From positions 6,262,001-6,326,000 of the forward strand of contig NC_135906.1 of NCBI RefSeq assembly GCF_964194155.1: 64,000 nt of DNA, in the 5' to 3' direction. A model generated the notes under the pieces. It was not told where the DNA came from. It saw only the letters and a program-made list of their open reading frames with translations, and did not search any database. Below are positions 41,501 to 44,500 of the stretch, piece after piece. Positions within the stretch are counted from its first letter, which is position 1; each line of letters starts with the position of its first letter. This DNA is from Cetorhinus maximus (Eukaryota). The position numbers and the translations under genes are program-made.

Positions 41501-44500
41501 ATGCAACTGAAGACAGGTTGCATAGACTAGGATTGCATACTCTGGAATATGAATATGGTGATCGAATTGAGATGTTTTAAGATATTATTAAAAGATTCAG
41601 CATGGTGGTTAGAAAGGGATTATTTCCTCTGGAGGGAGAGACCAGAACGAATTACAGCTTGTCCATTCAGGGGTGATGCCTGGAAACAATTAGTCACACA
41701 CAGGGTAATGGAAACCTGGAACTCTTCCCCCCCCCAAAAAGCTGTTGTGGCAAATTAAATGATCAAAATGGAGATTGCTGATTCTTGTTAGACAAGGGTA
41801 TTAAAGAGTTATAGAACAAGATGGGTCGATAGAGTTAGGACACAGAACAGCCATGATCTGGTTGAATGGTTTGAACAGGCTCAGGGGGCTGAACGGACTA
41901 CTCTGTTTCCTACTTTGGCTCCAATCGTAACACAACTGTGCTTGCTGTCCCGTCACTGGAGGCACAACTCTGCCCCCTAACAGTCACCTCACCAATTCAG
42001 AGCTCATACCCATTGTCTTGGCGATCCAGAAATACAAGCCACTGCCTTTTTGAAATAGAAAGTAAAACTTGATTGGCTAGGAAGAGGGAAATGGTTGAGT
42101 ATTACCTGCACCTCAGCACAAAGCAAAATCCACTCCATTCTCATTCAGCGTACTGTCTCACCTGATTAAATTCCAGGACGTCAAGTAAATCAAACAGCTT
42201 GCGGTTCTTCTCATTGTCCTTTAGTTTAACATAATATTGCTGTAATCCATGGAGTGTCAGCTTAGTTTCATCGTCAACAAACACCTCCATGGGCTAAACG
42301 AGAGAGAAAAACCAGAAACATGTAACATTTCATGAATTGTTTGCCCTGCTCCTTGGGCTATTTACCATTACGGGTTGCTTTGGAGACCACTCAATTCATC
42401 TAGGAAGAAACCTATAGCCCATGGTAGTTTCTCAAATGATTCTGGGTTTAGTACCAACTACTCTACATGGAAGCCTATTCGATGAGATCATTGCTTCTCG
42501 TAAGAAGCACTTCCAGTCATCGGTCCTAAGCTCACCATTCACAGTCCCTCTGCCCAGCCTGCCAGTTTATCCTCAGAGGATGACTGAAGCTAGCTATCAG
42601 TGCCAGGACTCTGCTCCACACTCCTTTACAGCCCAAAGGTCTCCCTTTGTGTCAGTGACTAGAGCTAGCTAGGTACCATATTCAAGATGTTGGCTGGCCA
42701 GGGTACTGCAGCTTTAGAAGGCTTCCATGAGTGTTTAGGATGTTAAGGGAGATTCAACCTATGGAAATATCTCTGTTGAACCAATACTATCCTCAACCAG
42801 CATCTACATACATTTTATTCAAGGAAGGAGAAATGGGCAGCAATAGATATCTTGACAACACAATCTCCTTTGATAGGTGTAAAGGGAAGCTGCAAAATTG
42901 AAGGTCAAATCAGTGGACTCAGCAGTTTCTACCAACCTCCAGGATGATCAATGTTCTATGAACAAATTAAATCAGAAAGAAACTAGCCCTACCATCTCCA
43001 AACATAGGTTCAAACTGGAATATTGAGACATACGAGTCACAACAGACAGAGCGAACCAGGGTGATATATTGTGAAATGGCTTCATATGGTGATGGGGAGC
43101 AGAGTAAGAGTTAAAGCCCCAGTTTGATGGCTGCATGTCTTACTGCTCTGCAAATCTAACCTGGCCAGCCGATCAATCGGCTGCTAAACAAAGGGGCCGC
43201 AAACATTACCTGCAGCTAATCCCGGAATGGAACTGCCTGAAAGGAACACTGAGCACAACTTGTCACTACATACTCGTAAGCAATTACACCAACCAGTAAG
43301 GGCTTTCAGTAACCACACAATCAACAGACCACTTGCAAGTTAGAGACTCCCAAGTGTCCCTGAAGGACTTGAAAATTTTAACCTATAAGTTATGGTTATA
43401 AGTGAAGTTTTTTTTAAACCCAGCATTGTTATACCGTAGTATCTGATGTGTAATCTGCAGGCCTCCAAATTAAATACAGCAATGCTCAACTTTCCCAATG
43501 ACTAAACACATCCAATATGCCCCACACGTGCACCAGGTTTCAAACAGGCACAAACAGCTCCCACATCGCAAGAATATGAAATCTAACCTCAATGACCATC
43601 CTTTGTCAGATTGAGAAACCACTGTCGGTGAGCACTCAATTTCTTGGACAGCCAGCAGCAATGGAGCCGCATCCCTGTACCCCTCCAATCACTGAGCTCA
43701 ATTCCCAGCCAGGCCACTCATACCCAGGCTCCCCTGTTCTATGAGGTCATTGGTCTCAGAGTTCAGGTACCTCAACACCCATTACAAGTAAACTTCCATG
43801 AACTGTCTTCCAACTACTGCACCCCCTCCCTGTCCCCAGATTTCAAGTTAGATCCATTGAATTTCGGCACAAAATAAATGCAGTATTGTTTGGTACTTGT
43901 GGTAACAGCTAAAGTGAACAGTTTTGCACAGAGGCTTGCCCCAGCCATAGCCTAGCCTAGTAGTTCAACCAACCATACACTTTGGGATACAGCCAATTTA
44001 AATTAAAGCAATACACTAACAGTTGAACAGAACTTTCACTGGTCTAGTGTAACTCTAAAGATATAAAGATTAAAAAAGGCTTTCATGCTGCACCGTCAGC
44101 CAAGAGATAAAAAATAACACACCACCACCAAAAGGATCACATCAGAGAGAATTGTGAGATTCCACCGTTATACACACCTCGGTCACAATGGTAATGTTTA
44201 GGCTCAAAGAATGGAGAGCTGAACGAGGTACACAGACAGCTCCGCCATGGAACTGGACCCCACAAACAAGAGTCAGCACATCCAGGTCAGGGCCGATTGC
44301 GGGAAATAGAGCTTGTAGTGACTCAAAACTCGGAAATGTAGTGAATAGCGGGGATAGTAACAGGCCTCAGAAGGACACAGACTATGATATGAGCAAAAAC
44401 ACAGCTGATGCAATTTAACTAAGTGTGAAGTGATGCATTTGTGGTAAGAAAAATGAGAGGTACTCTGAACTAAATGGTAGAATTCTAAAGGGGAGAGAGA

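Follow-up and report, generated by a model that had tools for sequence, protein, structure and literature searches.

Ultraconserved poison exons occur in SR and hnRNP genes. The closest described systems are those of the DDX39 genes themselves. In human cells, intron 6 of DDX39A and of DDX39B is more retained when the respective protein is depleted, an effect that the protein rescues; the authors name this loop a positive feedback, and the retained DDX39A form is nuclear (PMC11317157). The intron-6-retained and A3SS isoforms of human DDX39A are SNRPD2/HNRNPL-dependent and NMD-sensitive (PMC11425265), intron 6 is usually the last removed among introns 6-8 of this gene (10.1101/2022.08.12.503515), and a retained segment of DDX39A is responsive to mTOR inhibition (PMC12809107). 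In the paralog DDX39B, intron 6 contains a reporter-tested decoy of 122-369 nt (Parra et al., 10.1101/258897), and a retained intron, numbered 5 in that work, is NMD-sensitive (PMC12949242). The available parts of 10.64898/2026.10.27.762353 and PMC545797 contain nothing on DDX39A intron 6, and the available parts of the published supplements give no position for the human internal exon. Another system that invites comparison is the concealed-branch-site stem-loop of SF3B3 (PMC11162794), a paper from whose main text DDX39 is absent.

The window analyzed here, a stretch of 64,000 nucleotides, carries on its minus strand a DDX39 gene that is intact across exons 2-10. Judged by its sequence, this gene is DDX39A and not DDX39B, because exon 5 encodes the peptide HFVLDECDK and exon 10 matches DDX39A best (the top PDB match); the first-pass annotation had taken human DDX39B intron 6 for its comparison. 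According to PMC11317157, HFVLDECDK (A) versus HFILDECDK (B) separates the paralogs. The genome has two DDX39 genes, and the second, on contig C22 (G000:C22), has the I of the DDX39B type at this position and is identical in reading to human DDX39B in exons 6 and 10. Exon 6 of the window gene, taken alone, scores slightly higher on DDX39B. In the HEKQV stretch of this exon (46715-46717 region) there is a V at the position of C223 of human DDX39A, a residue said to distinguish apo-AREX from apo-TREX complexes (PMC11317157, Discussion). Strongly skewed GC-rich simple-repeat arrays at 60900-64000 surround what is likely the gene's first exon and promoter. The intron that concerns us and its surroundings are laid out as follows.

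46650-46768, minus strand: DDX39A exon 6, ending ...FMQD in phase 0; RNA contigs continue directly into exon 5 letters
42162-42293, minus strand: DDX39A exon 7 (PMEV...FNQ); an X4 contig continues into exon 8 letters
42294-46649, minus strand: intron 6, with a length of 4356 nt, kept in the RNA contigs of relatives; translation running into it meets a stop after 13 codons
44310-44805 (about 44310-44540 and 44710-44805), no strand assigned: dispersed-repeat stretches in intron 6, with 39 of 42 genome matches

Twenty-two sequencing runs were listed, 18 of them guessed to be RNA, and eight were compared with the gene, all as assembled contigs, in which unspliced pre-mRNA could yield identical intron contigs. 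In run X8 (organism B), a single contig of 4444 nt covers 42264-46679, which is the whole of intron 6 plus 30 nt of either exon, and in run X4 (organism A) a single contig covers 42264-43935. Exon 6 contigs continue into exon 5 in both X4 and X8, and exon 7 continues into exon 8 in X4; therefore these runs contain spliced RNA. The 27-nt candidate exon described below is also crossed by contigs of 4441 nt (X2), 4312 nt (X9) and 406 nt (X10), so that five of the eight runs compared, from species A and B and from five studies, cover it, with unbroken contigs in all five. One X8 contig also enters intron 7. Run X16, from the species of the window itself, gave repeat-like pieces only and leaves the candidate uncovered, as does X13, a gap that proves nothing. 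Contig depths, which cannot quantify retention, were 34.5 versus 445-469 in X8 and 23 versus 470 in X4. With contigs that carry the intron and flanking exons that are spliced, intron 6 is retained in RNA of these relatives. By analogy with the human gene, it is likely that intron 6 of DDX39A is a regulated retained intron acting through unproductive splicing.

The comparison with human DDX39A is one of orthologous genes with the same intron position and phase. Like the human retained and A3SS/267-aa isoforms (PMC11317157 and PMC11425265; P0183, P0251), the window locus presents a retained intron with an early stop and an internal cryptic acceptor in its 3' part. Mammalian DDX39A proteins of 266-267 aa found in databases end in a tail that is neither exon 7 nor the start of the intron, and this form would correspond to exon 6 spliced to an internal intron-6 acceptor. 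Its existence makes it more probable from the outset that intron 6 of the window gene has a real poison exon. Unlike the arrangement, the sequence of the mammalian tails has no likeness to window intron 6 (one of 12 tails beat all but one of 60 shuffles), and no homology was detected.

The beginning of the intron offers a second line of comparison.

46642-46649, minus strand: weak intron-6 donor, GAT/GTAATTAT, score 0.9 versus 4.1 for the donor of the candidate microexon

Three other DDX39A donors are about as weak as this one. The first 8 intron nucleotides are identical in the window gene, in the DDX39B paralog (C22 near 12295666) and in two metagenome loci (L014:1216 and L070:121), and among nine donors compared that of intron 6 alone has 8 nt common to both paralogs. 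In a survey of proteins, 29 of 118 parsed entries have exons 5 and 6 joined and then run into intron 6 and a stop, but the query itself ended in intron-6 read-through, which biases the counts toward such tails, and some entries may be gene predictions. The carriers include Arabidopsis, soybean, a teleost, a turtle and a crane. All but one of the 29 tails start with VI, VN or VM, and therefore have a non-G at donor +5. The window read-through starts VI, whereas the human one starts VS, consistent with a consensus +5 G, as do most of the bony-vertebrate DDX39A read-throughs that were found. A close DDX39A read-through protein, P0004, can be aligned, with one frameshift, to the initial ~130 nt of the intron (46523-46649). 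Two near-identical, non-vertebrate-looking contigs (L056:164-733 and L083), with a coding sequence that is otherwise uninterrupted, have a GC-AG intron of ~570 nt one codon upstream of the intron-6 position, which may represent this retention or a case of intron sliding. Twelve vertebrate DDX39B entries, from sawshark to mammals (P0032-P0035, P0042, P0043, P0046-P0049, P0081 and P0094), join exon 6 to exon 8, which is an in-frame skip of the 132-nt exon 7. A search by title and abstract start, with subscription journals mostly outside its coverage, found no paper on ancestral retention at this intron position. We consider the chances evenly balanced that control of UAP56/DDX39 at the intron following ...FMQD is ancestral, with retention from plants to vertebrates by means of a conserved non-consensus donor.

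Within the intron, the first-pass annotation had singled out a short exon carrying a stop codon, together with a hairpin beside it, as a candidate autoregulatory switch.

43210-43236, minus strand: candidate 27-nt stop-codon microexon, TAG at 43218-43216; sites and TAG unchanged in organisms A and B, with an internal change at 43223
43166-43183, minus strand: inverted repeat, predicted 7-bp hairpin; overlaps the tandem acceptor 43183/43180 and ends just before the weak donor 43161

The description of the exon itself was accurate. The minus strand reads tttcAG before the 27-nt segment (43236-43210) and GTAATG after it, and since exon 6, the last nucleotide of which is 46650, ends in phase 0, inclusion reads AVPFRD in frame 0 and then the TAG. 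This in-frame PTC is 138 nt short of the exon 7/8 junction, more than the 50-55-nt rule of NMD requires, and the splice sites of the candidate are canonical. The description of the region as TE-free is also supported, as 43000-43500 matches the genome once, at itself, in a search that skipped very common words. An approximate matrix gives 5.3 for the acceptor and 4.1 for the donor, values similar to those of the gene's real sites. In the eight introns scanned, two other pseudo-exons of 15-300 nt equal or exceed both scores and three more nearly do so. By the same approximate matrix, cryptic sites of intron 6 form a cluster (acceptors 43359, 43236 and 43180; donors 43210, 43161 and 42993), and comparable clusters are also present in introns 2 and 7. 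The 161-nt region around the candidate has a fold z of 0.10.

Concerning the inverted repeat, the arms are indeed exact over 8 bp and start 26 nt after the donor, but such a repeat is not above chance: 0.36 perfect arms of at least 8 bp are expected in intron 6, and one or more occurred in 28 of 100 shuffles. Its predicted fold has 7 bp and a 4-nt loop (-11.6 kcal/mol), because a loop of 2 nt cannot close in RNA. The hairpin is intact in four of the five covering runs and is broken in X4, one individual, by an uncompensated change at 43178. A longer perfect inverted repeat of 10 bp is found at 44561-44584, in the repeat-rich part of intron 6. No Rfam family matched at gathering score across the 64-kb window, and a long-range pairing scan, run without a shuffle control, gave no interpretable partner. 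Taken alone, neither the 27-nt exon nor the inverted repeat exceeds chance, and the hairpin is likely incidental.

Traces of inclusion were sought in RNA, DNA and protein. Among the matches listed, the contigs of the eight runs have no joint or loose end at 43236 or 43210, and the constitutive exon 6/7 joint is likewise absent from them, which deprives this negative of weight; moreover, words of 31 letters are longer than a 27-nt exon, the inclusion of which would leave the intron contig unbroken. The microexon pattern had no match in metagenome contigs. No protein tail matched the microexon or the 150-nt exon described below among the 118 parsed entries or among the 70 parsed of 109 further ones, in a search made insensitive by the query bias and by 90% clustering. 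The intron has several cryptic splice-site pairs, and the 27-nt segment is probably one of these, seldom if ever built into mRNA.

Conservation was examined at two distances. Organisms A and B, about 96% identical, keep the AG, the GT and the TAG of the microexon. The differences in A and B around the candidate amount to 13-14 in 291 nt (4.5-4.8%), against an intron average of 140 in 4444 or 67 in 1680, so that divergence in the candidate region is not below that of the intron. There is one change in the 75 nt of 43199-43273, and the 53-nt span of exon plus sites gives P=0.37, in a test of low power given that A and B are too close. From organism E (run X18) we have a 2220-nt contig, which aligned to 43110-43400 only at 43317-43358, with 3 mismatches in 42. 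This contig appears to be the retained intron 6 of E, because its loose ends align by eye at ~70% identity, with indels, and the 1042 nt that follow the block agree with the 1053 expected for the 3' part of the intron. The microexon and the hairpin, 80-150 nt past the block, had no alignment at 80% in this one distant contig, by an aligner of unspecified seed length. In this single distant comparison the microexon is not conserved above the intron background. Two elements upstream of the microexon come into view from these alignments.

43317-43358, minus strand: 42-nt conserved block, a predicted stem-loop with the branch-site-like CTCTAAC; 3 mismatches in 42 in E, and A and B unchanged over 43303-43358
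43359-43361, minus strand: second cryptic acceptor, AG at 43361-43360, score 5.1; paired with donor 43210 it would bound an exon of 150 nt whose codon 13 is a stop

The 3 mismatches in 42, against flanks at ~70%, correspond to P of about 3e-4 before correction for window choice. The fold of the block has a z of -2.2, with 8 of 200 shuffles equally good, for a window picked after the fact; the predicted stem has 10-12 bp and places the branch A at the loop-closing pair. The motif YNYTRAY occurs 28 times in intron 6. The branch motif of the block lies about 100 nt upstream of the microexon acceptor, and six AGs intervene. As for the second acceptor, the block begins 1 nt after it (43359), its AG is kept in A and B and an AG is also at that place in E, and its pyrimidine tract is shortened, being largely missing in E. 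The 10-kb intron 6 of the paralog has no likeness to window intron 6 beyond repeats and the donor (local scores of 26 versus shuffle means of 26-27). Among eighty metagenome exon-7 loci, none recognisably vertebrate, nothing convincingly resembled intron 6 (best E 0.38).

These elements can be set against the other known systems. Like the DDX39B decoy (10.1101/258897), the window has a retained intron of more than 1 kb at the same position, observed in the related species, with multiple competing cryptic sites, as expected of a decoy exon. It differs in being the other paralog and in its size, 27 nt against 122-369 nt, and the DDX39B decoy is backed by junctions, U2AF binding and reporter activity, whereas the window candidate is known from sequence alone. 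As in SF3B3 (PMC11162794), an intronic stem-loop with a branch-site motif is predicted upstream of a stop-containing candidate exon; unlike SF3B3, the stem would have 10-12 bp rather than 14-17 and six AGs intervene. The SF3B3 stem is conserved, whereas the window block was compared in one distant species, without covariation. With the ultraconserved poison exons of SR and hnRNP genes, finally, the candidate shares the nature of a PTC cassette in an RNA-processing gene, and it differs from them in having neither outstanding conservation nor a sign of negative feedback.

Several explanations can account for parts of these observations. If the 27-nt segment were a true poison microexon, included when DDX39A is abundant so that the mRNA goes to NMD, and controlled in its use by the hairpin, the upstream stem-loop or both, then the quality of its sites, the position of its PTC, the retention of sites and TAG in A and B, the mammalian stop isoform and the conserved stem-loop, loosely like that of SF3B3 (PMC11162794), would all be as observed. 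Against this, the microexon is unaligned in E though the block is aligned, pseudo-exons of equal quality exist elsewhere in the gene, the hairpin is at chance level and broken in X4, six AGs separate the branch motif from the acceptor, and the mammalian tails have no homology to window intron 6. Moreover, feedback in human DDX39A is positive, with depletion increasing retention (PMC11317157), and not the negative loop proposed for a poison exon. We therefore regard a true poison microexon as unlikely, and the same holds for its role as an autoregulatory switch; what stands of that proposal is that intron 6 is likely a regulated site of unproductive splicing, and what falls is the support for the 27-nt exon and the hairpin as the switch. 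A larger cassette, from acceptor 43359 to donor 43210 or 43161 (150 or 199 nt), or a junction of exon 6 with an internal acceptor that leaves the remaining intron in place, as the human A3SS form does, would make the 27-nt exon a sub-form using the same donor. The start of the conserved block 1 nt after this acceptor and the AG at its place in E speak for such a cassette, as do the several competing sites typical of decoys (10.1101/258897) and the stop in every form that begins at 43359. But the pyrimidine tract is largely missing before the AG in E, and an abundant exon of more than 31 nt should break the intron contig, which is unbroken in all five covering runs (rare forms are dropped), so that this cassette too seems improbable.

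At the opposite extreme, nothing inside the intron would be functional: retention would follow passively from a weak donor constrained by the coding end ...MQD, and the block, the microexon and the hairpin would be neutral. The chance level of the splice sites and hairpin, the lack of likeness in the paralog's intron 6 and the 28 occurrences of YNYTRAY are consistent with this. It does not account well for a block with 3 mismatches in 42 between flanks of ~70%, at least before correction for window choice, nor for the donor bases +3 to +8, intronic and common to the paralogs and the distant loci, and we consider passive retention very unlikely. Hardly more credible is the complete model, in which ancestral retention is combined with a conserved branch-site stem-loop (43317-43358) that gates the cryptic cluster and with the 27-nt stop microexon as poison or decoy switch.

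The explanation we prefer, and hold to be more likely than not, is that intron 6 of DDX39A is itself the genuine feature, probably kept in part of the transcripts as a likely regulated bottleneck, with the 27-nt form minor or unused. The non-consensus donor would make removal of intron 6 slow, and the internal cluster at 43361-43161 may additionally act as a decoy that draws splicing away from the terminal sites. Transcripts that keep the intron would stay in the nucleus or, once exported, would decay through the stop that follows 13 intronic codons. If human cells are a guide, DDX39A itself and the levels of the core spliceosome would promote removal, a positive and not a negative feedback.

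On this preferred explanation, the intron-6 bottleneck of human DDX39A and DDX39B would extend to a distant vertebrate lineage, and two testable cis-elements can be put forward for it: the donor, weak and shared with the paralog, and the block of 42 nt. By itself the microexon, supposing it is real, would add another poison exon to an intron already known to give a stop isoform in mammals. The leads worth following are the block at 43317-43358 and the apparently ancient retention at the intron-6 position. If retention is ancestral across plants and animals, this intron would be a very old point of expression control of a core splicing and export helicase.
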